A stretch of DNA of 32,000 nucleotides from Xylanibacter ruminicola 23 (lineage in GTDB: Bacteria > Bacteroidota > Bacteroidia > Bacteroidales > Bacteroidaceae). Position 1 is the first letter of the stretch. Every line of letters begins with the position of its first letter. Positions 1,330 to 14,129 of the stretch are shown here, one piece after another. The position numbers and the translations under genes are program-made. Under the pieces are notes generated by a model. The model made no database searches. It worked only from the letters and a program-made list of their open reading frames with translations, and had not been told where the DNA came from. Where the stretch lies: positions 900,001 through 932,000 of the forward strand of contig NC_014033.1 of the NCBI RefSeq assembly GCF_000025925.1. The letters run 5' to 3'.

Positions 1330-1998
1330 ATGATGTTTCCCGAAGTACATAACAGCGCGCAGCTTACTGAGCTGATTAGCAGCATTGGCTTTTTGCCCTT
1401 GCTCGATAGTGGTATTCGTGGTTTCTCGGCCGAAGAGATTGTAGCTGACGATTGTCGTTATGTAGTGTTCAGCGATGGCGGTTGGGATTGGCCGCTGTGG
1501 AAGTGGAAGGGTAGCATCATCACCGAGGGGCATCATGTGTATGGTAAGTTCTTTGCTGGCAAGGCAGGCTTTATCAGTCGTGAGTGGTGGCCCGATTTCT
1601 GTAACTACCGCCGCAGCAAGTATCCAGCGCCCCAGGAGGGCAGTATTGATGAAGCTATCCTCTTTACCTTAGAGCAGGAGGGCAGTCTGATTACCCGCGA
1701 GCTGCGCAGCCAGTGCGGTTTCACCGGTCCTAAGATGCGTAGTAAGTTCGATGGCTACGTTACCCGCCTGCAGATGGCCACCCGTATCGTTACCGAAGAT
1801 TTTGTGTATCCCCTCGACCGTCACGGTCGTGAGTACGGCTGGGGCTGGTCGCTCCTCACCACACCCGAGCGCCTCTATGGTCGCGCTGCCACCCAGTGCC
1901 CCCGCACTCCCGAAGAATCCTTCCAGCGCATCTTCGCCCACATGCAAACCATCTGCCCCCAAGCCTCCGACAAACAACTCCTTAAAATGCTGAAATAA
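1330..1998 (+). CDS. conserved hypothetical protein, possibly an AlkZ-related / winged-helix protein
   Basis: The track ORF 1189..1998 overlaps tRNA-Glu copy 2 and the terminator, so I trimmed it to the first ATG after the terminator (MMFPEVHNSAQL...). The resemblance to the short Bacteroidales AlkZ-related family is from memory only. Confidence 0.55.
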   Translation: MMFPEVHNSAQLTELISSIGFLPLLDSGIRGFSAEEIVADDCRYVVFSDGGWDWPLWKWKGSIITEGHHVYGKFFAGKAGFISREWWPDFCNYRRSKYPAPQEGSIDEAILFTLEQEGSLITRELRSQCGFTGPKMRSKFDGYVTRLQMATRIVTEDFVYPLDRHGREYGWGWSLLTTPERLYGRAATQCPRTPEESFQRIFAHMQTICPQASDKQLLKMLK

Positions 1999-2050
1999 TA
2001 GTGTAATATTGTTTACAAAATGCACTATCGCACCAACGTTAACGGCAAGA

Positions 2051-2959
2051 TTAGTCGTTATAATGTTCAAGCATTTTCTGTATTGCCGCCTTGATTTCTT
2101 CGCGGACATACTGCGGTTCTAAAACTTCCAACTTTTCCCTATGCCATAAAAGCTGCTGATAGAAGTTAAAGCATGGAACAAGCCTGTATTCAAAAATGCT
2201 CCATTCAGGATTGATCTCAACTTCCTTTTGTGATTCGTGGATAGGCAGTGTCCTTACATATTCCACCTGTTGTCCGTAAACCTTTATCCTTATTATCTCA
2301 GGCTTTTGTTCGTCAGAGTGATTGGCTCCGAAACTGCCGTCAAAGTACTCTTCAACACTTATATCGTTAGTAGGGGCCATTTTCTCCTCTGTCAATGTGA
2401 TATTGTCCATTCGCTCCAATGCGAAAATTGAAATGCCATGATGATGATTATCAGGCTCTGCCACCAGATACCAGCGCTGTTCCCATGTGCGTAGGAAGTA
2501 AGGGATAAGTAATTGATGCTTAACCGTTTGTCGGTTAAACGAGTAATACTCGCACTCTATACCTTTATTTTTGTCAATGGCTTCCAGTATTATCTGCACG
2601 TTCTCTACTCCAGTAGGAGCCTCTGTAAGCATAATCTTGTCGCGATGTTTCAGGGCTAGTTCGGTCATACCTTCAATATGATAGGCTGAGAGTAGATAGT
2701 CAAATAGAGAATCGTTTTCACCATAGAATCCTTTGTTGCGATGCAACTCGTTTTTCCCCGTTCTGGTATTATACTCTATATAACAAGGGAAATTTAACTC
2801 AATATAATCCTTATATCTCAGAAATGTTCGAGGTAGAATATCATCACCTTCATATATAGAAGAGTACTGATAACTCTCATTTATCTCCTTCAGAGTCATT
2901 GCACCTTTCCGCTCCAGCAGATTAATCAGGTAGAGGCATTTTCTTATTTTAGGTTGCAT
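2051..2959 (-). CDS. WYL domain-containing transcriptional regulator (BrxR/CapW-like architecture: N-terminal wHTH, central WYL, C-terminal extension)
   Basis: 302 aa. The N-terminal KCLYLINLLERKGAMTLKEINESY is HTH-like. The literal WYL motif sits in ...RTWEQRWYLVAEPDNHH... at aa 163-165. The size is typical of BrxR/CapW-type regulators. Confidence 0.8.
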   Translation of the reverse strand: MQPKIRKCLYLINLLERKGAMTLKEINESYQYSSIYEGDDILPRTFLRYKDYIELNFPCYIEYNTRTGKNELHRNKGFYGENDSLFDYLLSAYHIEGMTELALKHRDKIMLTEAPTGVENVQIILEAIDKNKGIECEYYSFNRQTVKHQLLIPYFLRTWEQRWYLVAEPDNHHHGISIFALERMDNITLTEEKMAPTNDISVEEYFDGSFGANHSDEQKPEIIRIKVYGQQVEYVRTLPIHESQKEVEINPEWSIFEYRLVPCFNFYQQLLWHREKLEVLEPQYVREEIKAAIQKMLEHYND

Positions 2960-2977
2960 AGGCAGTTATTTTTGTGG

Positions 2978-2985
2978 CAAAGATA
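2978..2985 (-). promoter_or_regulatory. -7 box (TATCTTTG on the minus strand) for the WYL regulator gene
   Basis: TAnnTTTG match 18 nt upstream of the ATG at 2959. Confidence 0.5.
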
Positions 2986-3197
2986 GTTATTATTTTTATA
3001 TACACAAAGGATTATGCTCTTCTTTTTCATTATAAACAGTTTTTTTATTTGCATATTGAGTTCTAGTGTGATGTTCCTCCAAAGCTTCATCCAATTTGTT
3101 GTGCTTGACAATTCCTGGGTATATCCAGGTTGAATGAATTGAAGCATGAAGAACTGGCTATTCATCTTAGAAATAGGGAGTGGGTCTTTTTTTATTT

Positions 3198-3371
3198 TCA
3201 TTTTATCTTTCCTTTATCTATAGAAAATTTTGATGCCCAGTCTTCATAACCACATGAAGGACAAGTTGCCTTAAACTGTGATGAGTCGTAAATTATATCA
3301 CCACCATTACACCACACGACAGGACTGCCACATTTGGGACAAATTAAATCAACAACAATAATACTACTCAT
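3198..3371 (-). CDS. 57-aa zinc-ribbon protein (absent from the ORF track, below its length cut-off)
   Basis: My own translation: MSSIIVVDLICPKCGSPVVWCNGGDIIYDSSQFKATCPSCGYEDWASKFSIDKGKIK. It has two CxxC pairs (CPKC, CPSC). It starts 6 nt after the stop of the upstream 167-aa gene. Confidence 0.6.
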   Translation of the reverse strand: MSSIIVVDLICPKCGSPVVWCNGGDIIYDSSQFKATCPSCGYEDWASKFSIDKGKIK

Positions 3372-3377
3372 AGCACT

Positions 3378-3881
3378 TTAATTTTTATTATTCGATTCCT
3401 TACTTTTACTAATACTCTCCATCTCTTCAACAAATTTCCCAATCAGATTATTGGGATCTTCTACCACATGAAGGAATTCATTAAAAAAGTGTGGTATTCT
3501 CTTATAATTAATTCCATCTTTAGTTACTTCCACATAAACTATTCTTCTTCCAGTATCAAATTCGTGGTTTGTTACTAAGGGAACAATTCTTATCTGATAC
3601 TTGGGCCTACAGATAATTCCTAGGTTCAATAAAAGCTCAGCCATTTTATCTATATTGTCCCAGATATCTTTTGGAAATAGAAATATAGAATAACCTTCAG
3701 GAATATCGACATCTTTCCACTCTTCCGAGTCTAGATATTTTTTATAAGAGTTAGAGTATGGAACAATGACGCCAAGTTTAATTAATTCTGGAGGCAATGG
3801 ATCTCTGTGAACAACGACACTGCCCCATAATACTATGGAAGGACAATATTCATTGTATTTTCGAATTAATTCCATTTTCAT
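3378..3881 (-). CDS. hypothetical protein, 167 aa, no recognisable domain
   Basis: Long ORF in an AT-rich region with its own -7 box 27 nt upstream. Acidic/lysine-rich C-terminal tail. No TM segment. Confidence 0.7.
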   Translation of the reverse strand: MKMELIRKYNEYCPSIVLWGSVVVHRDPLPPELIKLGVIVPYSNSYKKYLDSEEWKDVDIPEGYSIFLFPKDIWDNIDKMAELLLNLGIICRPKYQIRIVPLVTNHEFDTGRRIVYVEVTKDGINYKRIPHFFNEFLHVVEDPNNLIGKFVEEMESISKSKESNNKN

Positions 3882-3908
3882 ATTACCTTTGCTTCATGTT
3901 TCTGGCTG

Positions 3909-3916
3909 CAAAGATA
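3909..3916 (-). promoter_or_regulatory. -7 box (TATCTTTG on the minus strand) for the 167-aa / zinc-ribbon unit
   Basis: TAnnTTTG match 27 nt upstream of the ATG at 3881. Confidence 0.5.
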
Positions 3917-3945
3917 AAAAGAGAGGCAGACATTTTGTGTCCGCC
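3914..3945 (-). terminator. intrinsic terminator ending the 559-aa/342-aa operon
   Basis: Minus strand reads ggcggaca-caaaa-tgtctgcc (one G-U pair), followed by tctcttttta. It lies 20 nt after the stop at 3965. Confidence 0.6.
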
Positions 3946-3964
3946 CCCCAAAAACTTATCAGGA

Positions 3965-4993
3965 TTAAATCAGGATGGTATAAAACAATGATGCTAATGA
4001 GATTGCCAATGCGATTATTGAGACGATCTTATAAACTGCCAATTGTTTCTTCATCTTTTCAAAAATAGCATTTTGATTCTCTATAAAGCCATCTGTCTGC
4101 TCTTGAATCTCCGCAGTTTTATGTTCTGCTTCTTTCTGAAATTCTGATAATGCAATTGCTGTTTGCTCTTTAATCTGAGAAACAAATTCCTCTTGTGCCT
4201 TAACTAATTCTTCGGATGATCGTTTTATCTCGGCAAGAGAATCAGTAATGTGTTTCTCTATTCTATCTAGTGATTCATTTTGTTCATTCTTCAATAACGA
4301 AGATGCTTCTTCTTGATTTTTTTTGATATCTGTAATAGTCACAGATAGCTTATCGTTGAGGTCTTTAATATATGAATCATGGGATTTTTCTAATGACTCA
4401 GCTTCATGTATTATTGTCTGAAGTTTATCATTTATTTTTTTTTGAGTATTTTGCCATTCTGACTGCAATAGAGATAGCCCCTCCTCAAGCTGCTGGTACT
4501 CTTTTGCTTCGGCCTCTACATTCTCGGCAAATATATCAATTAATTCAGAAATACTTATTTCACCCTTTTTGATCTTTTCTGTTACATCATTTAACCTTTT
4601 AACAGCTTTTTCACTTGCTCTTTTATCTCTTCGCTGATTAAATGTTATTATTCCCATACATATGATCATGTTTTTAATAATAATCAGAGTATTGGAAAGA
4701 TTATCATTAAGGTGACCAATGACCTTGGATGTATTCTGAAAAGAACTAGTAAAATCTGTATTAATTGATATCAAAGCATCTTTTACCGAATTCGTTGATG
4801 GAGGTGCCCAATTTGCCCCCAAGATGTTGCCAACCTTTTCTATATCAGCCCCTCCATTATAAATCGTATTCTGTAAGGTTGATATACTACTTTTGATGGT
4901 AGAAACATTCTTCTCTAGTCCTGCAAGTTCTTTCTGTAAATCTGCAAGAGACTTTGGGGGTTCTTTCTGATTTGGCAATAATTCTTTATTCAT
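3965..4993 (-). CDS. tail-anchored coiled-coil membrane protein, 342 aa, function unknown
   Basis: The K/E/Q-rich heptad-like sequence across aa 120-315 suggests a long coiled coil. The C-terminal LAVYKIVSIIALAISLASLFYTILI is a terminal TM helix. A second hydrophobic patch, LIIIKNMIICMGIITF, lies at aa 103-118. ATGA overlap with the upstream gene. Confidence 0.8.
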   Translation of the reverse strand: MNKELLPNQKEPPKSLADLQKELAGLEKNVSTIKSSISTLQNTIYNGGADIEKVGNILGANWAPPSTNSVKDALISINTDFTSSFQNTSKVIGHLNDNLSNTLIIIKNMIICMGIITFNQRRDKRASEKAVKRLNDVTEKIKKGEISISELIDIFAENVEAEAKEYQQLEEGLSLLQSEWQNTQKKINDKLQTIIHEAESLEKSHDSYIKDLNDKLSVTITDIKKNQEEASSLLKNEQNESLDRIEKHITDSLAEIKRSSEELVKAQEEFVSQIKEQTAIALSEFQKEAEHKTAEIQEQTDGFIENQNAIFEKMKKQLAVYKIVSIIALAISLASLFYTILI

Positions 4994-6669
4994 TTCTTTA
5001 TACTTTTTCTAAGATTATATAATTTTATTTCGTTTTCACTCTGGATTTTATCGATTTCTTTTAATGTCGAATTCATCTCTTCGTTATGTTCTTTTTCAAT
5101 CTTTTCAATCTCCTGCCGTTCTTTTTGAACTTCTACAAAACTATTTATATAGGAATACATATATTGGTATGTTCCAAATAATGCAACATCAACTTTGGCG
5201 GAAGATACATGCACATAATAATCCGACAATTCTTTTATCTTATCCATATTGGTATTACGTTCAGCTAAAGAGTTTTCTCGCATCTGATTGTTCTTATACT
5301 GAATAAAAAGATAAGTAATGAGTATTCCCGCTAGACCTACAATAATTGAAACCAACACATTTGCCACATCATCAGACATAGAGCCTAAAATGGGTAAATT
5401 CGTTGATAAGAATTTTGAAATGGCTTCAGTTAGGAAAATGCCTATACAAGTTGAAATGCCTGCAAATATTATTTTCCCTGCAGCCTGCATTCTTTCCTCC
5501 ATTGGCTTGGAGTTATCGCATAGTACTTTAACGGCCCTTCCTAAAGAAAGGGTTGCTTCTCTAATTATTATTACTATGCGTTTTACGGTTGTTATAAAAC
5601 TATTAATTATAAATGTAACAATAGTGGAAATGATACCAGATATTCCGCCTTCTAAGGCAGAATTACCGATTTCCTTTATGTGACTTTGAATTTTATAACG
5701 AATATTTTTCAAGCCCTCAATAATATATAAGATAAAGGATCGGAACCCCTCCAATGTCCCTTCTTTATACTTTTTTATTGCATCTTTAATAATCAAAAAA
5801 CTCTCTTCTACCATTATTTTTAATGCACAACCTAAAGCCTGGCGTAAGGCCAACTTAAGTCCAGCTTTCGCTCCTTCTTTACCTAATTCTTGACCATGAT
5901 AGATAATCCTTTCTTTGGTTGTAGGCTCGTGTTCTTTAACGGCTTCATCAGACCTTCTTTGAGCTGCATTAACACGCCGATTGTCCATTCCTCGATCTTC
6001 TTTATTTGTAAGTTCTGGATTTCGGCTACTTTTTTGAGTTTCATAATCGTATTTATCTTTCTCTCCTAATGATTCATTTAAGGAACCATCGACAACGTTT
6101 AAATTTCTTTTATCTGTACCAAACTTATTTCTTTTTTCTTTATTCTGCATCCAACCTCCCTTTTTATGATATTGTTTTGCGGAGAAAAAATGGTCAACAT
6201 GAGGATTTGTCGTTTCTCTGCCTGTTAATTGATCCTTATCCTGTCCATTAACTTTTCTTTCACTTTTTATCTTCTCTCTTTGTCTAGCCGTAAAATCGTA
6301 ATCTTCTCTATTAAATTTTTCACTATCTTTTGCAAAAATATCTTTTTCGGCATTATGCTGGGTTGTCACTGCACCACCATCTTTATCATTAAACATGGCT
6401 CTAGAGAGACCGAAGGGCCCCAAAATACTGTCTATCACAATGTCTTCGCATTCGTTTGCCAAGTTAAAAACTTGCTCATTGGCGTCGACATTCTTGTTTT
6501 TTTGATTTATTGTTTCTAGTTCATCAAGAAGTCTTTGCTCTTCCTGTTCCAGAGAATTATAAATCAAATCCCAATCTGCATTCTCAATTTCTTCAAAATC
6601 CTTATCCGTCATTTCTGCAATTTCAGAAATTACGATGTCATCATTTGCGTAGTTCTTTAAATCATCCAT
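4990..6669 (-). CDS. 559-aa protein: acidic N-terminus, nuclease-like D-H...N...N motif region, 3-4 TM helices, C-terminal coiled coil; function unknown
   Basis: aa 148-205 read LTGRETTNPHVDHFFSAKQYH...KRNLNVVDGSLNESLGEKD, which resembles a cysteine-less HNH/beta-beta-alpha-Me signature. Hydrophobic helices sit at about aa 338-362, 396-420 and 434-456. The C-terminus is rich in E/K. Confidence 0.85.
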   Translation of the reverse strand: MDDLKNYANDDIVISEIAEMTDKDFEEIENADWDLIYNSLEQEEQRLLDELETINQKNKNVDANEQVFNLANECEDIVIDSILGPFGLSRAMFNDKDGGAVTTQHNAEKDIFAKDSEKFNREDYDFTARQREKIKSERKVNGQDKDQLTGRETTNPHVDHFFSAKQYHKKGGWMQNKEKRNKFGTDKRNLNVVDGSLNESLGEKDKYDYETQKSSRNPELTNKEDRGMDNRRVNAAQRRSDEAVKEHEPTTKERIIYHGQELGKEGAKAGLKLALRQALGCALKIMVEESFLIIKDAIKKYKEGTLEGFRSFILYIIEGLKNIRYKIQSHIKEIGNSALEGGISGIISTIVTFIINSFITTVKRIVIIIREATLSLGRAVKVLCDNSKPMEERMQAAGKIIFAGISTCIGIFLTEAISKFLSTNLPILGSMSDDVANVLVSIIVGLAGILITYLFIQYKNNQMRENSLAERNTNMDKIKELSDYYVHVSSAKVDVALFGTYQYMYSYINSFVEVQKERQEIEKIEKEHNEEMNSTLKEIDKIQSENEIKLYNLRKSIKK

Positions 6670-6832
6670 GACCTTATTGTTTTACGTTCCATATGTTTGC
6701 GACAAGAAGTGTCTCTTCCTCCTCCATATATACTTGTTTGTCAAGAGAACAATTTCTTATAACAATACTTATCAGCCTCCATGTAATATGTCAAATGAGC
6801 GTTGCCGCTTCAGCTCTTTTAGATTGTTTGGG

Positions 6833-6840
6833 CAAATATA
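6833..6840 (-). promoter_or_regulatory. candidate -7 box (TATATTTG on the minus strand) for the 559-aa/342-aa operon
   Basis: This is the only TAnnTTTG match between 6670 and 6913 on the minus strand. It implies a leader of about 155 nt. Confidence 0.4.
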
Positions 6841-6913
6841 GGGATTATTTCTGAAACATCCAAGTATTTGTGCTTTTTTTATATCAAAGAGTGAGTTTTC
6901 TATGTTAAACACT

Positions 6914-7141
6914 CTATGAAATCAGAAAGCAAACTCCCAAAGCAAACAGATGTCTGTATCGCCATAGGGCAGGGAGCTCCAAGTAAACTTCTTCCTCAGT
7001 GAGGGAGATTGATATGATGGCACATCCTATCCAGATCAAAGATGTGAAAGTGTATATTCTAGGGACACCAGCAAATACCATAATTGTTACAACAACCATG
7101 TGGAGGTATGGAATACCTTTTGTTACAATATCTAACGTCAT
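6914..7141 (-). CDS. possible small membrane protein (75 aa, two hydrophobic helices)
   Basis: Starts 17 nt after the M48 gene stop on the same strand. The hydrophobic stretches HMVVVTIMVFAGV and LIWIGCAIISISL are present. No homology recognised. Confidence 0.35.
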   Translation of the reverse strand: MTLDIVTKGIPYLHMVVVTIMVFAGVPRIYTFTSLIWIGCAIISISLTEEEVYLELPALWRYRHLFALGVCFLIS

Positions 7142-7157
7142 AATCTTTTTCTTCAGT

Positions 7158-7943
7158 TCAACAATCTATATTTCTTAATTTTCTGTATTGCCAGGAGTTT
7201 TTCCAACGGTCTATCTCCCAGGCACGATATACTTGTTGAGGATGGGAGTTGAATGCGATGCGACAGTTCTGTTGCAAACGATTAAGCCAAGAGGATTCTT
7301 TGAAATGATGATATTCACGAGCCTGCTCAACGAGCTGATAAGGATTCCCGCTAATCTCCTTCAGACCGCATGTTGACTTGAGCATTGTGGTTTGAAAAGC
7401 AAACTCACCTACAACTGCAGCAGCACAACGATCAGCAGAAAGCTCACTCTTACGAGACCAATAATGCATAGCCATCAAAACGGGACCTAATGTGGCATAT
7501 GAGAGGATGTCAAGCCAATAACCCAACTCGCTGATTGTTCTAAGAAGCGTTGAATATAATGTATGATGGCAAAGAATATGTCCGCACTCATGGGCCATAA
7601 CGCATCTAAGTTCATCAAGCTCCATTCTTTCTACGATTGCACTGCTCAAAGCTATGAAGGTGTTATTTTCTCCATATGTAAATGCATTCATATGTGGATC
7701 GTTATAGATGTAGAGTTCTGGTTCAGTAATGCCTACTTTTTCAACTACCTCCTTAAAAGCTATGTATAGAGCCGGATAGTTCGTGGAACTAACTCTGACA
7801 AAGGAACCAAGGCACATACCTCGATATATCCTTTCAAGGCCATGCTCCATACAATAGCTTATAAGCTCATTATATCCCTTTAGGCTCTGTAAGGCTCTTA
7901 TTGCCTTCGCATCTTCGGGATGCATGATATCACGTACTTCCAT
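7158..7943 (-). CDS. M48 family zinc metallopeptidase (soluble type)
   Basis: HEXXH motif in VMAHECGHILCHH, with a downstream SELSADR glutamate motif typical of M48/HtpX-like peptidases. No TM segments. Confidence 0.88.
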   Translation of the reverse strand: MEVRDIMHPEDAKAIRALQSLKGYNELISYCMEHGLERIYRGMCLGSFVRVSSTNYPALYIAFKEVVEKVGITEPELYIYNDPHMNAFTYGENNTFIALSSAIVERMELDELRCVMAHECGHILCHHTLYSTLLRTISELGYWLDILSYATLGPVLMAMHYWSRKSELSADRCAAAVVGEFAFQTTMLKSTCGLKEISGNPYQLVEQAREYHHFKESSWLNRLQQNCRIAFNSHPQQVYRAWEIDRWKNSWQYRKLRNIDC

Positions 7944-7946
7944 AAT

Positions 7947-8693
7947 TTATGCTTCTGATAGTTCAACATGACGATAACGCATACCCGCAATCATTATTAC
8001 TGCAGGAATAACAACACGATAAGCAGGCGAGGCGATGTCGCTGATAGTCCAGCATGCCAACATTCCCCAACCAATAGGGCCAGCTAACATACCAACATAT
8101 CTCTCAAAGGTTATCATACCCATCATAGAGATAGTACGTCCAAAAATCATATTGGCAATACGAGTGATAATGAATGTCATTAATTCCACGAAAAGATATC
8201 TATTGGTACGTAGAGAAATCATCAACGAGAATACGATTTGCTGTCGATTCAGGTTCTTATGTGATATACCTGCTTTGTCAGCAAGATCTCTTAGTTCTTC
8301 ATCAGAGAGTTTCTCTGTAGTTTTCTCGCACAGCGTTGTCAGTAATCGCTGTTCCATCATATTAACGTTATCATTGTAAGCCACACTCACTTTAAGTTTC
8401 TTGCAAACTCTTCTTAAGATGGTCTCATAGCTATCTGCCTCACCTTTCTTATATAATGTATGTACAGTGTTACTACCAAACTTACGAAATTCTTCGCTAA
8501 TCTCCTTTGCCATTAGATTCATTTTTTCAGGGTAGCAGTTTAGGTAGGCATCGGTATTTGATAACTGTTCACTAAATCTCAATTCACCTTGTTTATTATG
8601 TGTGAGTATGTCGCACAATGTACGAAGGTCGTCATTCTGGCACTTTGCCAAGAATAGTAAATCTTTGTCTTCTTTCATAACTATATCCTCCAT
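7947..8693 (-). CDS. YaaW/UPF0174-like protein with a DUF3944-like N-terminus and a hydrophobic C-terminal half
   Basis: The N-terminal DKDLLFLAKCQNDDLRTLCDILT and the C-terminal ...GMLAGPIGWGMLACWTISDIASPAYRVVIPAVIMIAGMRY resemble the E. coli YaaW family (recalled from memory). It ends 3 nt before the M48 gene. Confidence 0.65.
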   Translation of the reverse strand: MEDIVMKEDKDLLFLAKCQNDDLRTLCDILTHNKQGELRFSEQLSNTDAYLNCYPEKMNLMAKEISEEFRKFGSNTVHTLYKKGEADSYETILRRVCKKLKVSVAYNDNVNMMEQRLLTTLCEKTTEKLSDEELRDLADKAGISHKNLNRQQIVFSLMISLRTNRYLFVELMTFIITRIANMIFGRTISMMGMITFERYVGMLAGPIGWGMLACWTISDIASPAYRVVIPAVIMIAGMRYRHVELSEA

Positions 8694-8709
8694 TTTAAGT
8701 TTCTGGGGG

Positions 8710-8717
8710 CAAAATTA
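8710..8717 (-). promoter_or_regulatory. -7 box (TAATTTTG on the minus strand) for the YaaW-like/M48 operon
   Basis: TAnnTTTG match 16 nt upstream of the ATG at 8693. Confidence 0.5.
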
Positions 8718-8725
8718 TACTATGA

Positions 8726-8746
8726 GTCGGACTAAACCTGTCCGAC
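8726..8746. promoter_or_regulatory. perfect inverted repeat GTCGGAC-N7-GTCCGAC over the -33 region of the YaaW-like/M48 promoter (candidate operator)
   Basis: 7-bp arms at 8726-8732 and 8740-8746, located 9-29 nt upstream of the -7 box. Confidence 0.4.
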
Positions 8747-8800
8747 CTAAGATAATATTCAAAAATTAAGTTATGATATGCCGTTATTGATACAAAAATA

Positions 8801-8945
8801 CCCTCAGGCTTCGATTTGAAACCTGAGGGTGATAGGATAGAGCCTGCTGCAGTAAGCGTGGCGGGCCGCGCAAGTGCAGGTCCTTGGCTATCTACATGGC
8901 GCCCATGCACGATGTCGCACCTAGGGCTGTTACAATCGCAGTAGC
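8801..8945. repeat. direct repeat copy 1: truncated 3' end of a smalltalk-type ORF plus its downstream structured region and terminator hairpin
   Basis: Aligns base-for-base with 9418-9562 at an offset of 617 nt. There are 3 mismatches in the 91 non-coding nt and 7 in the 54 coding nt. The hairpin ccctcagg/cctgaggg lies at 8801-8829. Confidence 0.9.
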
Positions 8946-8948
8946 TAC

Positions 8949-9410
8949 ATCTCTAACAAGATTGCTGCTTCTGAATGGGGTGATGGCGTTGTTAAACAAT
9001 TGGCTGATTATATCGAAAGAACTAGCCCAGAAGCTAAAGGATTTTCTGATAAGAACCTTTGGCGAATGAAGCAGTTCTATGAGACATATAATGGCATGGA
9101 CGAAAAACTCTCAGCACTGCTGAGACAAATTAATTGGACAAACAATCTAACTATTTTAAGTCGTACCAAATCAACCGAAGAAAGATACTTTTATTTGAAA
9201 CAATGTATCCAGGAGAGATGGACTAAGCGAGAACAAAATCGTCAGATAGATAGTGCTCTTTATGAAAGATCTAAAGTAGGAACTCCAAAACTCTCACCAC
9301 TGGTGAGAGAAATAGCTCCACAAGCAGAACAGATATTTAGAGACCAATATGTACTGGAGTTTTTTGGTGGAAAAGAGTATAAATATGAGAATGATCTGCC
9401 TGGCTTTATA
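8949..9410 (+). pseudogene. internal fragment of a DUF1016/YhcG-family (PDDEXK nuclease) gene, truncated at both ends
   Basis: The translation ...ISNKIAASEWGDGVVKQLADYIERTSPEAKGFSDKNLWRMKQFYETY...RDQYVLEFFGGKEYKYENDL matches the YhcG N-terminal domain and the first residues of the nuclease domain. There is no start codon (the track start at 9000 is a TTG inside the frame). The catalytic C-terminal half is missing. Confidence 0.7.
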
Positions 9411-9417
9411 ATAAAAT

Positions 9418-9562
9418 CCCCCAGGCTTCGCTTTGAAACCTGAGGGTGATAGGATAGAGCCTGCTGCAGTATGCGTGGCGGGCCGCGCAAGTGCAGGTCC
9501 TTGGCTATCTACATGGCGCCCATGCAACTCGTGGCGCCTAGGGCCGTTACAATCGCAGTAGC
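9418..9562. repeat. direct repeat copy 2 (belongs to the intact smalltalk-type ORF)
   Basis: See copy 1. In this copy the hairpin has one mismatch (cccccagg/cctgaggg). Confidence 0.9.
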
Positions 9563-9613
9563 GATACTTGCTATCATCTGTATGATGAACTTAAATGTTT
9601 CTTTCTTTGTCAT
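9509..9613 (-). CDS. 34-aa smalltalk-type peptide (signal-peptide-like, C-terminal lipobox); absent from the ORF track
   Basis: My own translation: MTKKETFKFIIQMIASIATAIVTALGATSCMGAM. It resembles the Bacteroidales small proteins that NCBI names smalltalk protein (from memory). The peptide of the truncated paralog at 8892-8945 is conserved through synonymous changes only. Confidence 0.6.
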   Translation of the reverse strand: MTKKETFKFIIQMIASIATAIVTALGATSCMGAM

Positions 9614-9729
9614 AATGGTTAAAGGTTTAATAGGTTAATGTTTAATCTTTTAATCGTTTCTTTAGTACGCTTGCCTAAGCAAGAATGTTTCATGTTTCAT
9701 GTAAAGGGTGGGGCCTAAGCCCCAAGCCC

Positions 9730-10287
9730 TTAATCACCAATCGGCTCGTTATGATTTCCGCCGCCACCGGTATTACCACCTTGGTTGCCGCCACCAGTGT
9801 TTCCACCGGTATTGCCTCCGCCATTGCTTGGCTCGTCGGGATCCTCAACCGTACCTGGGTCTGTCGAGGTTACACGCTTAATCTCCTTACCATCGCGGTC
9901 GTAGCAGGTAATCTGGATGGCTGTACCTGCCAGCTCCTCTTTCAGATCCACCGCTGGGGTGAAGATGATTCGACGACTGGTTACCAGTCCGGCTTTCACC
10001 TCATCAACCTTGGCTACACTCTTGGCGCGGATGCCGAATCGCATGGTTCCCAAACCTGGCAGCGCAACCGAGTGACCCTCTGTGGCCCAAGCTTTAATCA
10101 CTTCGCCAGCAGCATCCCAGCAGGCCTGCATAATGCCTTTGCTAACTCCGCTGCGCAGGGCAGCCTCCTTAATCACCTTGTCCTGCGAGAGTGAGGTGTA
10201 CAACTCCGGCATCATGATGTAGCGATAAGTGCCCTCATACTTGCCAATCTTCTGCAACTTTTCCTGTGCTTTAACTTTAAGTGCCAT
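9730..10287 (-). CDS. HU-family DNA-binding protein (Bacteroidales long form) with a Gly/Asn-rich C-terminal tail
   Basis: The segment ...VALPGLGTMRFGIRAKSVAKVDEVKAGLVTSRRIIFTPAVDLKEEL is an HU/IHF-like fold signature. The tail reads SNGGGNTGGNTGGGNQGGNTGGGGNHNEP. Confidence 0.8.
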   Translation of the reverse strand: MALKVKAQEKLQKIGKYEGTYRYIMMPELYTSLSQDKVIKEAALRSGVSKGIMQACWDAAGEVIKAWATEGHSVALPGLGTMRFGIRAKSVAKVDEVKAGLVTSRRIIFTPAVDLKEELAGTAIQITCYDRDGKEIKRVTSTDPGTVEDPDEPSNGGGNTGGNTGGGNQGGNTGGGGNHNEPIGD

Positions 10288-10384
10288 AATTCTAATTTTG
10301 TTTTTGTGTTGTTGTAAATAAAAATGTTTAATGTTTAATCTTTAATGTTTAATGTCTCAACTCCGATGTAGATTTGCGCCCTCG

Positions 10385-10435
10385 TGTGGGAGAATTTCTT
10401 AGTGCACGTGGGAAATAGTTTTGCCGCACGTGGCC
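10385..10435. promoter_or_regulatory. three YGTGGSM boxes at exact 22-bp spacing in the HU gene leader (two contain the CACGTG palindrome)
   Basis: tgtggga at 10385, cgtggga at 10407 and cgtggcc at 10429. Boxes 2 and 3 share gcacgtgg. Confidence 0.35.
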
Positions 10436-10463
10436 GCCATCTGTCTCATTCATTTCAACGGTG

Positions 10464-10471
10464 CAAAGGTA
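10464..10471 (-). promoter_or_regulatory. -7 box (TACCTTTG on the minus strand), candidate promoter of the HU-family gene
   Basis: TAnnTTTG match. It implies a leader of about 170 nt ahead of the ATG at 10287. Confidence 0.4.
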
Positions 10472-10543
10472 CGATATTTTGATTGCGGTCTACGAATAAT
10501 TCTCCAACTTTTTTCATTTTTCTCGAAAAAAAATTTCTGTGCA

Positions 10544-10573
10544 GTCAATAGTCATTAATGTCAATAGTCAATA
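10544..10573 (+). repeat. array of four GTCAWTA heptamers (left arm)
   Basis: gtcaata at 10544, gtcatta at 10551, gtcaata at 10560, gtcaata at 10567. Confidence 0.85.
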
Positions 10574-10599
10574 AGCCTCGAACAACCCTGTATTTTAAA

Positions 10600-10637
10600 T
10601 AAAAGAATATATATAATATATTATATATATTCTTTTA
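10600..10637. repeat. perfect 38-bp A/T-rich palindrome
   Basis: taaaagaatatatataata|tattatatatattctttta. I checked base by base that the right half is the reverse complement of the left half. Confidence 0.9.
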
Positions 10638-10663
10638 ATACTTACCCACATTTCCACTACTCT

Positions 10664-10694
10664 TAATGACTAATGACTAATGACTACTAATGAC
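10664..10694 (-). repeat. array of four TAATGAC heptamers (GTCATTA in inverted orientation; right arm)
   Basis: taatgac at 10664, 10671, 10678 and 10688. The array centre is about 60 bp from the palindrome centre, matching the left arm. Confidence 0.85.
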
Positions 10695-10772
10695 TGAAAT
10701 ATAGCTCGCAGGATATTGAGTTTTTTTCTAAAGAAAAACCCGAAAAAAATTGGATGCTATCCAAAAAAGATG

Positions 10773-10780
10773 TATATTTG
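10773..10780 (+). promoter_or_regulatory. -7 box (TATATTTG) for the kinase-like gene
   Basis: TAnnTTTG match 23 nt upstream of the ATG at 10804. Confidence 0.5.
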
Positions 10781-10803
10781 CAGCGATAAATTTTAAATGA
10801 TAA

Positions 10804-11487
10804 ATGAATGGATATTGTTCTGAACGATTATCACAAGAAAATGAACGCTATCAAGATAGCGAAGGTTGCATATTGGAAAGCGCATCCGCTTTCGCGTGCG
10901 GAGTCCTTAAAGAGATTGAGGAACTTGCGGGAACAACGTCTTGCAAATCTCTCCAACTGGTAAGGCTCAAGAAATGGGCCCAAGAGCAAGGCTGCTGGTA
11001 TAATGATCGCAGCCTTTTTGGCGATTATTTTGATCGTGGCTCAGAGAACGAAACTTATTTGTCACCAGATCTTAATGATATTATAAAACTTAACGACTTC
11101 CGTTATTCTGACGATAATCTCACTTCTTTCTTTGAACGTATCAAGGCTCATAATACTTACTTCCCTGATTGTGCATATCGTATGATTGGCTTTGCAGAGA
11201 ATATCCAAGGAAAGATTTGTGCGGTCCTTGTTCAACCATTTATCTCTGATGCACGATTAGCTACAAAAGAAGAAATTTACGATGAGTTTATTCGCCTTGG
11301 CTTTAGTCCGGAAGATAATGGTGAATACTTTACTAACGGTAGGCATGATATTTTTGATGCCGTTGATGGTAATGTACTCGTTGACGATGAGGGACATCTG
11401 TATTTTATTGATACCATCATATACAAATCGGGTACAGGCGGTGTAGAGGCATACAACAGTCTTTCGCCCAGAGCAAAATCGAAATAA
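10804..11487 (+). CDS. atypical protein-kinase-like protein (resembles the polyvalent-protein kinase domain family)
   Basis: GSENETYLSPDLNDIIKLND looks like a Gly-loop plus Lys. HDIFDAVDGNVLVDDEGHLYFIDT looks like a D-x4-N catalytic loop followed by a metal-binding Asp. The assignment rests on motifs only. Confidence 0.55.
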   Translation: MNGYCSERLSQENERYQDSEGCILESASAFACGVLKEIEELAGTTSCKSLQLVRLKKWAQEQGCWYNDRSLFGDYFDRGSENETYLSPDLNDIIKLNDFRYSDDNLTSFFERIKAHNTYFPDCAYRMIGFAENIQGKICAVLVQPFISDARLATKEEIYDEFIRLGFSPEDNGEYFTNGRHDIFDAVDGNVLVDDEGHLYFIDTIIYKSGTGGVEAYNSLSPRAKSK

Positions 11488-11612
11488 CAATCAATATAGC
11501 TTTACCTAGCAGGTAATGATGGTTAATGAGTAGAAACATTAGTCATCATTTAAAAAACCTTAAACTCGCAAATTTTAAAGAATCACCATACTTGAAACAC
11601 ACATTTTTTATT

Positions 11613-11620
11613 TATCTTTG
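11613..11620 (+). promoter_or_regulatory. -7 box (TATCTTTG) for the HIRAN gene
   Basis: TAnnTTTG match 41 nt upstream of the ATG at 11662. Confidence 0.45.
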
Positions 11621-11661
11621 CCATCGTTTTTGGGCTAACTTACCCTATACCAACTTCAACT

Positions 11662-12663
11662 ATGAGTATTATACAACTAAATATAGTAGGTATTCCTTAC
11701 CGTAAAGATCTTTATGGGCATGTCGGCGAGTTTCTTGCTGAGGCGCCTGGGCATGCTATGACTCTCAGACCTGAAAGCGCTAACGACAGCGACAAGGTTG
11801 CCGTTCGTGCTTACGACTGGCTGGGACGACACGTAGGATATGTATCAAGTCCAGAGCTACCGAGAGCATGGGGAGCGCTACGATGCAGCGAACAAAACAA
11901 ATTAAGAGGTATGATAGTTGGTTCTAATATCGAGCACCCGTGTGTAGCGTTCGAGTGTGTGGTGTTAGATTATAAAGGCCCTGTAACCGACTTGTATCCG
12001 CAAAAAATATTTCTGGATTGGAAATATACTGGTCCTGTACTCGATATTCCAGAAGAGTTTGATAACCTGGTTTATATGCGCGATGAAATAATAGACCGAC
12101 TAACCGAACGTGATGAATGGGATGATGAAGCACAGGCGCACTTTATCTCGCTAGTAAAACGTTTTTCCGCTTATCTGAAATACGATATTTCGGGCGAAAT
12201 GAGCGACTATCGAAAACACCTGATAGAGATGCTTACTGATATCGGTGACTGCGAGTTTCAGGAGGTCATCGACGAACTTACAATGTCAGCTGGACGTACA
12301 GGTCGTGAGACAACGTGTGGTAGTGTGCTGGAATTTTGGAAAGAGCAGATGCAGTCGGCCGATACACGAAAACATCTGATGGTGCACCAACGAAAGTATA
12401 ATGCCAAGACGGTAGAAAAGGAACTGGAAGAGTTTCCCGAAAACTTGTACTTTGAATGGAAGGCTAACCCCGAACGCTTTGTTTCAAAACTATATTATCG
12501 GCATATTCCTCGCGAGGTTATATGGCGATTTGTTTCAGGCATAGCATTTGTAGAAATGACAAATGCTATCGCCAAGAAAGCCGAAGATGAAAAGGCTATA
12601 CACGAAAAGCGTAATGTGATATTAACAGGCGATAATGCTAGTTATATAGAAAATAAAGAATAA
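11662..12663 (+). CDS. HIRAN domain-containing protein (N-terminal HIRAN, about 230 aa of unknown C-terminal region)
   Basis: LNIVGIPYRKDLYGHVGEF...MTLRPESANDSDKVAVRAYDWLGRHVGYVS follows the HIRAN pattern (G..Y......G..L.L.RE..N..D.NAI.V.......GYV). Confidence 0.65.
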   Translation: MSIIQLNIVGIPYRKDLYGHVGEFLAEAPGHAMTLRPESANDSDKVAVRAYDWLGRHVGYVSSPELPRAWGALRCSEQNKLRGMIVGSNIEHPCVAFECVVLDYKGPVTDLYPQKIFLDWKYTGPVLDIPEEFDNLVYMRDEIIDRLTERDEWDDEAQAHFISLVKRFSAYLKYDISGEMSDYRKHLIEMLTDIGDCEFQEVIDELTMSAGRTGRETTCGSVLEFWKEQMQSADTRKHLMVHQRKYNAKTVEKELEEFPENLYFEWKANPERFVSKLYYRHIPREVIWRFVSGIAFVEMTNAIAKKAEDEKAIHEKRNVILTGDNASYIENKE

Positions 12664-12672
12664 TAAGATACA

Positions 12673-13185
12673 ATGGCAAGAAGAATAATAATGACGGGTG
12701 ATGAGGCGCAGTATATAGAGCGTCGTGGTGCGAATGCACAGCCCGATGACGACCGCGAGATACGTATGGAGGGGCGGCACGCCCGCTACGAGGAGTGCTC
12801 GGTAGCCCAGGTGGCTCATTTCCCTATTAACAACAATGAGGCAGCGGGCAAACAGTGGTTCGAGTTCCTGATTAGAAATGGATTTATTGCTCCTGATACC
12901 GAGATGAGCTGCTGGCAGTATCTGATGGGCTTCTCAACCAATCAGCCAACTGACATTAAACCGATAGAGTGGATGAAAACAGTTGAGACGGCACGACTGA
13001 TGCTGGTAAAGGTGAATAACGAGGTGCTTGCGAAGAAACAGATGACCATAGCACACATGAACGAACTGGCAGCACAATGCTTTACCAAACAGGGGCAATC
13101 GCTTAAATTGGCCAAACCACGAAAAGAGTTATCTGCCGATGCTGATGCAATAGAGAATTTTATTCCGACCATTTCCGACCTTTAA
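12673..13185 (+). CDS. hypothetical protein, 170 aa
   Basis: ORF in the same operon-like run, 9 nt after the HIRAN gene stop. Its N-terminus repeats the C-terminal motif of the HIRAN protein. Confidence 0.6.
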   Translation: MARRIIMTGDEAQYIERRGANAQPDDDREIRMEGRHARYEECSVAQVAHFPINNNEAAGKQWFEFLIRNGFIAPDTEMSCWQYLMGFSTNQPTDIKPIEWMKTVETARLMLVKVNNEVLAKKQMTIAHMNELAAQCFTKQGQSLKLAKPRKELSADADAIENFIPTISDL

Positions 13186-13221
13186 CCGAAACACCTGTAA
13201 ATACTAGGTTTTCGACATATT

Positions 13222-13272
13222 TCTCCCGACTGTTTCCGACTGCGAAATGGTCGGGAGATACCTTTATTTTTC
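13222..13272 (+). terminator. intrinsic terminator after the kinase-like/HIRAN/170-aa unit
   Basis: Perfect 9-bp stem tctcccgac (13222-13230) / gtcgggaga (13250-13258), followed by tacctttatttttct. Confidence 0.65.
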
Positions 13273-13296
13273 TGCTTTTCAATGCCAAAAAGTGCT

Positions 13297-13304
13297 TAAT
13301 TTTG
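13297..13304 (+). promoter_or_regulatory. -7 box (TAATTTTG) for the replication-module operon
   Basis: TAnnTTTG match upstream of the ATG at 13368. Confidence 0.45.
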
Positions 13305-13367
13305 CACTCGTAAACCTGAGGCTTCTCGGTGATTCACAAGTGTTAATTTGATTTGTTGATACACATT

Positions 13368-13652
13368 ATGGAAACAAAGATTTTAAAAGTGGTACGCCAG
13401 GGCGAGGCCTTTAGCGTACAGTCATCAAAGAGTGACAACGGTACCATTCAGAAGTGTAACATTGTGCTGCGCGAGATGGGTGGTAGCAAGTTCGAAAACG
13501 AGTATGTGTGCGCCATGCTGGGCAATCTGGCGGCGTGCAGGTTCTACGAAGGTGATGTGGTGGCAGCCACACTTCGTTTCTCTACACATGAGTATCAGGG
13601 GCAGGTGTTCCAAGAAATACTTGCGACCGATATCGTAGTTATTAAACATTAA
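13368..13652 (+). CDS. small OB-fold-like protein (DUF3127-like pattern), 94 aa
   Basis: Trimmed to the ATG (METKILKV...), because the track start at 13353 is a TTG. Length and pattern (N-terminal beta strand, ...GDVVAATLRFSTHEYQGQVFQEILATDI) resemble DUF3127. The call is weak. Confidence 0.5.
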   Translation: METKILKVVRQGEAFSVQSSKSDNGTIQKCNIVLREMGGSKFENEYVCAMLGNLAACRFYEGDVVAATLRFSTHEYQGQVFQEILATDIVVIKH

Positions 13653-13739
13653 TTTTCTGAGTTGAGGGTGAGGAGGATATTCTCGAGTAAATGGCCAAGG
13701 AATCCGAAACTTCTTCTCGCTTAAACACTTAGAAAAAAT

Positions 13740-14129
13740 ATGAAAACAAGAAAAAGCAGAATTTTAGGAGAACAGGTAATGGTTGAAGGTCTGATGACCT
13801 TTGGCAAGTTGGAAACAGGACTGCGCACACTTGATTTTGAGTGCTGCGAGGATGTGGCGGCCGAGGCTTTTAAGGGTAAGTTCGTGGTGCAGGGCATGCG
13901 TGATGGTAACGTGTATATGAGCGAGTTGCCTAAGCGACCAAAGAACAAGCCGCTGTTTCGTGAGGATAACTGCTCGTTGTCGCACGGTCGTAACGGTCGC
14001 TACTATTTTGTATTCTCGCTGGATGATGATGAGGTAGGGCAGTTACCCCAGAAACTAACTGAACAGGCAAACAACATAGCCAGCAAAATGATAAGGAAGA
14101 TACTATTGGAAGGAGGTGAGCTGGGATGA
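13740..14129 (+). CDS. hypothetical protein, 129 aa
   Basis: ATGA stop/start overlap with the downstream primase gene suggests translational coupling. Confidence 0.55.
   Translation: MKTRKSRILGEQVMVEGLMTFGKLETGLRTLDFECCEDVAAEAFKGKFVVQGMRDGNVYMSELPKRPKNKPLFREDNCSLSHGRNGRYYFVFSLDDDEVGQLPQKLTEQANNIASKMIRKILLEGGELG

Follow-up and report, generated by a model that had tools for sequence, protein, structure and literature searches.

PDC-M40 is one of the 145 candidate systems described by Payne et al. (2024; bioRxiv 10.1101/2024.01.29.577857), whose candidates were derived from genes embedded in BREX, DISARM, type I restriction-modification (R-M) and Hma systems. It corresponds to cassette CAS_00143 (FAM_02470>>FAM_01369>>FAM_02062), which is composed of three families and was counted in 79 instances (10.1101/2024.01.29.577857). 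The subject of this work is a pair of adjoining minus-strand genes of Xylanibacter (Prevotella) ruminicola 23 that encode a 559-amino-acid (aa) protein, called B, and a 342-aa protein, called C. They lie in a stretch of 32,000 nucleotides (nt) (contig NC_014033.1, positions 900,001 to 932,000), which is referred to in its entirety as the window and is numbered from its first letter. With two genes and no SUKH component, the B–C pair is a strongly diverged Bacteroidota version of the catalogued candidate PDC-M40; the letter A is kept for the SUKH protein (M40A) found elsewhere. The two-gene B>>C form was counted just 7 times by Payne et al., under the cut-off of their paper (10.1101/2024.01.29.577857). 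PDC-M40 had no description of function, mechanism or domains, and a concrete mechanism is now proposed, namely a membrane-tethered HNH nuclease with an obligatory tail-anchored partner.

SNIPE, a nuclease anchored in the inner membrane, cuts phage DNA as this is being injected, and removal of its transmembrane (TM) segment makes it toxic to the host (PMC13190303). It is a single protein made up of one N-terminal TM segment, a DUF4041 domain and a GIY-YIG nuclease (PMC13190303). The logic predicted for B–C is alike in that a membrane-tethered cytoplasmic catalytic domain with elongated helical regions would spare the chromosome. In contrast to SNIPE, B–C has an HNH head, a C-terminal membrane module of 3-4 helices and a separate partner. 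Neither DUF4041 nor GIY-YIG is detected in B or C (Pfam, E<=0.1), and there is no sequence or domain relationship between the two systems.

The island that carries the pair also recalls Juk and the BrxR/CapW-type WYL regulators. The Juk preprint treats JukA as a sensor with variable effectors, reports WYL and HNH proteins in its neighbourhoods and names WYL as the commonest defence-associated neighbour of jukA (bioRxiv 10.1101/2022.09.17.508391). As in Juk loci, a WYL gene is nearby, and a JukA-like gene lies 1.3 kb upstream of B on the same strand. However, no JukB model match is found among the scanned island proteins, the gene coupled to JukA here encodes an M48 peptidase, and B–C, which has a promoter of its own, does without JukA in nearly all other genomes. 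The WYL protein shares with BrxR/CapW-type regulators the WYL and WCX architecture, a position at the edge of a defence island and a promoter of its own, whereas its similarity to solved WYL proteins is marginal (E 0.04) and Pfam detects no N-terminal helix-turn-helix in it.

Relationship of the B–C cassette to PDC-M40

The 559-aa protein and two further proteins of the same block, a 167-aa protein and the WYL regulator, match ADE83048.1, WP_041385647.1 and ADE82936.1 of X. ruminicola 23 exactly; the first two are annotated as hypothetical. The cassette consists of the following parts.

4990..6669, minus strand: B, a 559-aa PDC-M40B-family protein with a predicted HNH head, a membrane module and a C-terminal coiled coil
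5884..6486, minus strand: residues 62-262 of B, the predicted N-terminal nuclease domain, whose HNH beta-beta-alpha core covers about residues 156-201 (6067-6204)
5296..5661, minus strand: predicted membrane module of B (residues 337-458), from hydropathy, AlphaFold2 (AF2), conservation and loop charges
3965..4993, minus strand: C, the 342-aa tail-anchored coiled-coil partner, with its TM segment at residues 323-341 (3971-4027)
6670..6913, minus strand: promoter and 5' leader of B–C, with a TAnnTTTG box at 6833-6840
3921..3949, minus strand: intrinsic terminator closing the B–C unit

B is a clear member of the PDC-M40B family, matching the PADLOC model PDC-M40B (PDLC04630) at an expectation value (E) of 4.9e-57 with residues 67-493 on profile positions 13-478 of 547. 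A first-pass annotation of this DNA, made by a model from the sequence and its open reading frames (ORFs), could place the components in no named system known to it; this view is not supported, given the match of B to a catalogued candidate. In the reference locus L001 of Janthinobacterium, A is a 169-aa SUKH/SMI1_KNR4 protein (M40A, 9.5e-75), B has 554 aa (1.4e-267) and C has 338 aa (5.5e-125). The order of B and C, the size and position of C and its tail-anchored coiled-coil architecture are alike in the family and in X. ruminicola, and the defence-island and WYL context is common to both. The X. ruminicola locus differs from PDC-M40 in lacking the SUKH/M40A gene, in having a C that matches no M40C hidden Markov model (HMM) and is linked to that family by profile-profile comparison, in the extra acidic N-terminal helix of ~60 aa on B and in its host, which belongs to the Bacteroidota whereas the family is found mostly in Proteobacteria.

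C is a probable divergent M40C and at minimum the positional and architectural equivalent of that family. It has no match to the PADLOC M40C HMM at E<=0.1 and clusters by sequence with Bacteroidales partners alone, while comparison of the C family with the M40C family by hhalign gives a probability of 75% (E 2.4e-5), with the same position, length, coiled coil and C-terminal TM segment in both. Hydropathy shows the single C-terminal TM segment of C, and the first-pass description of a tail-anchored coiled-coil protein, ATGA-coupled to B, is upheld. Matches of C to ZorA, JetC and LmuB cover coiled-coil segments only and were treated as compositional. The best of the weak matches to ZorA of Zorya (2.9e-5) falls on its coiled-coil tail part (profile positions 300-484 of 692), and neither a MotA/ExbB-type protein nor a ZorB-like protein is present here.

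An exhaustive profile search with the B family retrieves 571 representatives at E<=1e-30 and 998 at 1e-10, each representative being a cluster at 50% identity. Relatives in 42 clusters also support the placement of B. The family is present in 87 of 185,579 species genomes, mostly of Proteobacteria with a few Bacteroidales, Clostridia and Lentisphaerae. Plasmids, 56 in number, also carry homologues of B, in compact A–B or B–C units flanked by insertion sequence (IS) elements, and one B–C pair lies beside CTnDOT tra genes (L092). In E. coli the pair is rare (2 of 5,426 complete genomes). At 50% identity the family forms ~570-1000 clusters, a fairly large number, and it reaches gut and rumen Bacteroidota, Klebsiella and E. 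coli plasmids, and jumbo phages.

In most genomes B is followed within a few bases by a protein of 250-480 aa, and 62 such partners form one family, M40C. In 61 of 80 genome loci the ORF immediately after B belongs to the C family, as detected with HMMs, and in ~8 more this place is taken by a different, tightly linked ORF. The co-occurrence check called for by the first-pass annotation was thereby run, and the pairing was found in about 61-69 of the 80 genomes, across phyla and on plasmids. The 4-nt overlap (ATGA) between the B and C ORFs is kept in L087, L090 and L097. The SUKH gene A stands upstream of B in 22 of 87 loci, is absent from the other 65 and is never seen in Bacteroidales loci; the window likewise has no M40A ORF upstream of B. 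It is B–C rather than A–B–C that is identified as the conserved core of PDC-M40.

The B–C pair is a self-contained cassette with its own conserved promoter, leader and terminator. The Bacteroidetes-type TAnnTTTG motif is over-represented in the window (39 found against 22.9 expected, with 0 of 100 shuffles reaching 39), and the three promoter boxes of the first-pass annotation are all present on the minus strand, at 6833-6840 before B, at 3909-3916 before the 167-aa gene and at 2978-2985 before the WYL gene. Relatives L087, L088 and L097 share with the window the first of these boxes and ~100 nt of leader, which are also conserved upstream of a divergent cassette in L093. The terminator that had been proposed after the 342-aa gene is present as well and is placed here at 3921-3949 (12-bp stem with 7 GC pairs, T tail, -23.8 kcal/mol, z = -3.4). 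Putative genes of 95-108 aa called upstream of B in relatives are conserved as DNA, and the stretch is read as a leader rather than a gene because the ORF is broken in the window. The leader (6670-6913) has no Rfam match. It holds a small palindrome, AGCG-GCAA-CGCT, and the window has a deletion of ~150 nt in it compared with relatives.

Relatives of B are also carried by phages. B of the window has no match among phage records, but queries with proteobacterial B proteins retrieved homologues from jumbo phages. An intact B homologue (HMM E 2.5e-65), in which the catalytic and membrane motifs are kept, is present in four Aeromonas jumbo phages of ~260 kb (LAh10, D3, D6 and D9). In LAh10 this homologue is gp80, annotated as 'cobalamin adenosyltransferase', which is preceded by the glycine-zipper membrane protein gp79 (the two lie in L110 3940-6536) and is not followed by a C-type partner. 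The gp79 protein (L110 3940-4950) is homologous to a 331-aa cargo protein of another Bacteroidales island (L106; BLASTP E 7e-17). There the 331-aa protein comes after a 521-aa membrane protein (4201-6782 for the region), and the two may represent another family of cassettes that combine a large protein with a membrane partner. Carriage of B by jumbo phages is in keeping with a role against DNA that enters the cell, for instance in superinfection exclusion. PHROGs holds no match for B, C, the 167-aa protein or the 75-aa protein of the island, and B–C is therefore not considered a phage structural module.

Predicted domains and mode of action of B and C

Judged by its sequence signature, the N-terminal half of B carries an HNH (His-Me finger) nuclease motif of the Cas9/GmrSD type. 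Residues D159, H160, N189 and N198, in which the first-pass annotation had already recognized a nuclease-like D-H...N...N motif, are invariant in a 33-sequence alignment of the B family as well as in alignments A1 and A3, and D/E159, H160, N189 and N198 are each present in 139 of 139 diverse representatives. The H-to-N spacing is 29 residues and the N-to-N spacing is 9 residues; a D-H…N…N signature with the latter spacing is what we take to be the Cas9/GmrSD type (compare D839/H840/N854/N863 of Cas9). The same signature and N-to-N spacing occur in the DUF1524 (GmrSD_C) domains of GmrSD, BrxU and SspE and in Cas9-type HNH domains. Unlike these nucleases, B is predicted to be membrane-anchored, has no DUF262/ParB-like NTPase domain and shows a long H-to-N spacing and an extra motif. 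This second near-invariant motif, GPFGL(S/T)xAMFxDKxGGxVTTxHN, occupies B residues 84-106 (window 6352-6420), upstream of the HNH core. Its residues G98, G99 and N106 are found in 138 of 139 representatives, and it is modelled at low confidence.

Pfam GmrSD_C weakly matches 8 of the 33 B-family members and GH-E matches 4 of the 33. The AF2 model of whole B has a pLDDT of 73.9, and the head modelled alone reaches a pLDDT of 85.1 and a pTM of 0.72. AlphaFold puts the catalytic residues on a beta-beta-alpha unit formed by strands 156-160 and 190-194 and helix 195-201. A whole-protein Foldseek search of B against the PDB returned channel and pore-toxin matches, all of them non-significant (E >= 0.38). 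The helical membrane and coiled-coil parts dominate the whole-B model, and for this reason the head was searched alone. About 27 of the 29 listed PDB matches of the head are HNH/His-Me nucleases, among them Cas9 HNH domains, Cap5, the SspE C-terminal domain, McrA, PtuB, Vvn and EndoI. Against viral models (BFVD) the second match is a GmrSD_C protein (E 0.057, prob 0.98), and dozens of HNH endonucleases follow. B is predicted to be a nuclease with a cytoplasmic head.

The membrane module of B (residues 337-458) contains three clear hydrophobic helices and one amphipathic helix according to hydropathy and AF2, which agrees with the 3-4 TM helices and coiled coil previously described for the 559-aa protein. 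The AF2 helices span residues 339-363, 365-383, 390-424 and 426 onward, and a helix of ~100 residues follows the module. The loop at 363-399 has a mean K+R count of 7.4 and a net charge of +3.5, and the loop at 422-437 has a mean K+R count of 0.3 and a net charge of -1.1. From the hydrophobic segments, the AF2 helices and the positive-inside loop charges, we infer an N-in/C-in topology with four membrane helices. Three polar residues inside the module are highly conserved (N356 in 139, T361 in 138 and R370 in 133 of 139 representatives). The 611-aa B' protein of the divergent L093 cassette shares with B the membrane and coiled-coil module alone (HMM 266-516, E 3.6e-30) and matches PADLOC M40B at 2.9e-11 on residues 399-579. 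Its N-terminal head differs and is non-HNH. B' also weakly matches a SLATT model (5.8e-4). The membrane module behaves as a chassis, since B' keeps it under a different head.

The account favoured here, to which we give somewhat better than an even chance, is that this SUKH-less PDC-M40 cassette, borne in the island frame described below, is a membrane-tethered HNH nuclease defence with SNIPE-like logic. B, with both termini inside, and C would form a complex at the inner membrane, where tethering would hold the nuclease away from the chromosome while the complex cut foreign DNA at the point where that DNA crosses or contacts the membrane. Alternatively, cutting might follow a phage-induced change that is relayed via the membrane module and C. 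In either case C and the membrane module would supply positioning or activation. The catalytic residues and the polar residues of the module are both invariant, suggesting that both catalysis and a membrane role matter. The SUKH protein (M40A), present in about a quarter of loci elsewhere and missing here, would add a nuclease-inhibitor or sensor layer. The WYL protein may repress the island genes until a signal arrives; such control would follow the BrxR/CapW paradigm and is in keeping with the statistical linkage of WYL genes to B. In a more ambitious form, which is doubtful, a B–C hetero-oligomer cleaves DNA entering across the inner membrane independently of SNIPE, builds on a reusable chassis module able to bear different enzymatic heads, serves in Bacteroidales as a swappable effector cassette in a JukA-sensor array under WYL regulation and has been captured by Aeromonas jumbo phages, presumably for superinfection exclusion. 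If the idea of an entry-site nuclease is true, spatial discrimination of self from non-self (the SNIPE principle) would have arisen at least two times from unrelated nucleases.

Several observations weigh against this account. B itself has no match in Pfam, NCBIfam or PHROGs, sequence and profile searches of the PDB with the B family return nothing under E 0.3, and no PDB match of the head in Foldseek is individually significant (best E 1.9). The link from C to M40C is no stronger than the hhalign probability of 75%, and B occurs without any partner in ~11 of the 80 loci. The SUKH partners found elsewhere are typical of toxin-immunity pairs, and the invariant polar residues suggest that the membrane module is more than an anchor, which favours a role in pore formation or signalling. 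A literature search found no mention or experimental test of any PDC-M40 member. Of other PDC candidates examined elsewhere, 4 of 8 and 0 of 2 gave protection, so that the prior for anti-phage activity of B–C is moderate. Finally, the account relies on inference for the topology, the B–C complex, nuclease activity, the trigger and WYL control.

The island frame and alternative explanations

The B–C cassette is accompanied by the following minus-strand features.

3378..3881, minus strand: 167-aa protein, with a TAnnTTTG box at 3909-3916
3198..3371, minus strand: 57-aa double-CxxC zinc ribbon (CPKC and CPSC)
2051..2959, minus strand: WYL-WCX regulator of 302 aa, with a TAnnTTTG box at 2978-2985
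6914-7141, minus strand: conserved 75-aa protein with 2 TM segments
7158-7943, minus strand: soluble M48 (HExxH) peptidase (Pfam M48 7.7e-20)
7947-8693, minus strand: JukA/YaaW-like gene (PADLOC JukA 5.4e-47; Pfam DUF3944 1e-16)

The GC content is 0.33-0.40 over ~2000-9000 as opposed to ~0.47-0.55 in the flanks, so the AT-rich island of the first-pass annotation is seen, and its five co-oriented minus-strand ORFs are all found where it had put them. The ATGA coupling of the 559- and 342-aa genes and the 6-nt gap between the 167- and 57-aa ORFs were also found. The limits of the block were drawn too narrowly: the five genes are co-oriented, but the block does not end at 6840, as the 75-aa, M48 and JukA-like genes continue on the same strand.

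Comparison with related loci presents the region 2051-8693 as a mosaic defence island with a fixed JukA-M48-75-aa end, a WYL-WCX end and exchangeable cargo between them, and B–C as one swappable cargo cassette of this frame. In relatives the frame runs through HU-HIG, JukA-like, M48 and 75-aa proteins and variable cargo to a WYL-WCX protein. WYL orthologues close it in L090, L093, L097 and L102, the 75-aa protein is conserved in 9 loci, and the JukA-M48-75-aa trio is present in every Bacteroidales frame seen. The cargo of L097 is B–C together with a 70-aa protein, a Sel1 protein and a 233-aa protein, and that of L090 is B–C with 122-aa and 149-aa proteins, an AAA_25 protein and a ZapA-like protein. 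L093 carries the divergent B'–C' pair (5924-8909), in which C' (386 aa) is a clear homologue of C (1e-41), along with a 167-like protein, a 149-aa protein, a ZorD/DpdE-like SNF2 helicase and a MoxR/VWA pair. L106 carries the unrelated 521/331-aa membrane pair, a second JukA, a zinc ribbon and a 167-like protein; the 521-aa protein was considered as another B homologue, which neither HMM nor BLASTP supports. A second independent lineage is represented by L071, a metagenome-assembled genome (MAG) of the Pseudomonadota, in which WYL, JukA, M40A, B and C stand co-oriented in a row (~8100-12715). An M48 partner goes unmentioned in the Juk preprint (bioRxiv 10.1101/2022.09.17.508391), and JukA-M48 may for this reason be an undescribed JukA-effector pairing. 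The JukA-M48 … WYL frame is useful as a landmark in the search for further defence genes of Prevotella-type genomes, in which tests have covered few systems.

The surroundings of B homologues in unrelated genomes are those of defence islands. A PADLOC scan covered 128 genes flanking B–C in 22 dereplicated unrelated loci, and the most frequent families were WYL (5, the top family), type I and type II methyltransferases, BrxC, PglX, DrmMI and ZacB/C. An iterated WYL HMM detects a WYL gene no more than 10 kb away from B in 20 of the 80 loci, or in 11 of 34 once the loci are dereplicated; in 15 of those 20 it lies within ~4 kb, and in some it is directly adjacent. WYL regulators number a few per genome, and our own estimate of chance co-location is ~1%. 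Both the PADLOC flanking families and the significant WYL linkage bear out the defence context that had been proposed. The WYL protein of the window matches Pfam WYL (8e-11) and WCX (3.6e-8) and PADLOC WYL (2.9e-27). Of the 'WYL-controlled module' suggested earlier, the WYL-WCX regulator and its linkage to B–C in unrelated genomes stand, whereas a WYL specific to these genes does not, given that it forms the end of the frame in relatives.

The 167-aa and zinc-ribbon genes are a separate island cargo unit and not components of PDC-M40. This view follows from the promoter box of their own after the terminator, their absence from L090 and L097 and their occurrence without B–C. The 167-aa protein has no match in Pfam, NCBIfam, PADLOC or PHROGs and no PDB relative. 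It is similar in length to SUKH/M40A, but as a relocated copy of that protein it obtains an hhalign probability of 0.1%. A T7 endonuclease I-like PD-(D/E)xK fold was also rejected: E rises from 0.075 with the single sequence to 0.83 with a family profile, and the position of the catalytic Glu is occupied by Phe or Leu. The zinc ribbon has sub-threshold zinc-ribbon matches alone. Its homologue in L106 (E 3.4e-29) adjoins a 167-aa homologue in reversed order.

In the first-pass annotation, the 559-aa, 342-aa, 167-aa, zinc-ribbon and WYL genes were taken as one new WYL-controlled system. The genes are indeed co-oriented and compact with an AT-rich composition in common, a 167-aa homologue also follows B'–C' in L093, and the zinc ribbon and 167-aa genes are together again in L106. 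However, a terminator and a separate promoter box intervene between C and the 167-aa gene, the B–C loci L090 and L097 are without both small genes, and L102 has a 167-like gene without B–C. Distant homologues of the 167-aa protein (62-63% identity) occur in unrelated contexts of small genes (L096 and L105), and neither small gene is found in any of the 80 other genome loci. A single five-gene system is highly improbable and appears to be largely refuted by these comparative data. The frame itself raises another explanation, in which B–C is an interchangeable effector cassette of a JukA-type sensor that, with the M48 and 75-aa proteins, detects ejected phage factors where infection takes place and recruits or activates the cargo downstream, while WYL regulates the array. 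Wherever a B–C or B'–C' locus was seen in Bacteroidales, it follows JukA-M48 downstream with the same orientation, the leader before the cargo is conserved even where the cargo differs, and the co-oriented WYL-JukA-A-B-C row of L071 comes from an unrelated Pseudomonadota MAG. The Juk preprint's view of a sensor with variable effectors and WYL and HNH neighbours (10.1101/2022.09.17.508391) points the same way. Yet 79 of the 80 genome loci with B have no JukA within 10 kb, B–C has its own promoter box and terminator, and the plasmid copies are stand-alone pairs. The Bacteroidales sample is moreover biased, because its loci were found via B, C or 167-aa homologues, and dependence on JukA is considered quite unlikely.

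Two further explanations dispense with cutting of incoming DNA at the membrane. Multi-TM effectors are common abortive-infection outputs, and the membrane module of B might together with C act as a pore or depolariser, with the HNH head as a sensor or a second toxic activity set free upon activation and with the death, not the rescue, of infected cells as the outcome. The invariant N356, T361 and R370 inside the module are consistent with this, as are the reuse of the module with a different, non-HNH head in L093 B' and the weak SLATT match of that protein. On the other hand, B has no SLATT or other pore-family match, the channel and pore matches of its whole model in Foldseek stay at E >= 0.38, and the HNH catalytic residues are equally invariant (139/139), which argues that HNH catalysis is under selection. 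Killing through the membrane is an unlikely function of the cassette. The HNH-type motif and membrane domain of the multi-TM abortive-infection effector proposed earlier are real, but the abortive part of that proposal is not the best-supported one, as the nuclease residues are as invariant as those of the membrane module. A toxin-antitoxin (TA) or addiction module of mobile elements, with B as nuclease toxin and C (or SUKH/M40A elsewhere) as neutraliser, would stabilise islands and plasmids instead of acting against phage. It draws on the SUKH/SMI1_KNR4 proteins upstream of B in 22 of 87 loci, on the 56 plasmids with IS-flanked copies and on the CTnDOT tra genes that adjoin the pair in L092. 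SUKH/SMI1_KNR4 proteins were reportedly recognized by Zhang, Iyer and Aravind in 2011 as classic immunity proteins of nuclease toxins. B nevertheless is without any domain for secretion or delivery, C, as a large coiled coil anchored in the membrane, does not resemble typical antitoxins, and the neighbours are BREX, R-M, DISARM and WYL genes, although TA and defence functions can coexist. An addiction function is rated very unlikely, and a membrane-tethered nuclease defence is preferred to each of these explanations.

Sequence beyond the island

The low-GC, mobile-looking stretch runs on beyond the island, over 9730-16381. It encodes four proteins, which are of HU-HIG (9730-10287, minus strand), Kinase-PolyVal (10804-11487), HIRAN-domain (11662-12663) and DUF3987 primase/helicase-like (14126-16381) type, and none of the four has a PADLOC match. 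Between the JukA-like gene and the HU-HIG gene there is a direct repeat of 150 nt (8796-8945 and 9413-9562, 92% identical) that includes a terminator-like hairpin at 8800-8830. The two copies bracket a truncated DUF1016/YhcG-like gene (9000-9443) matching the PADLOC candidate PDC-S02 (2.5e-37) and could be a small repeat element or an insertion scar. An Rfam scan of 1900-9600 gave no match, and no tRNA-derived att-like repeats bounding the island were found within 17.6 kb. Just beyond the other end of the island, at 968-1271, lie a tRNA-Ser(GCT) gene and two near-identical tRNA-Glu(CTC) genes. An AlkZ-related ORF listed at 1189-1998 overlaps the second tRNA-Glu gene, suggesting that its true start is probably later.

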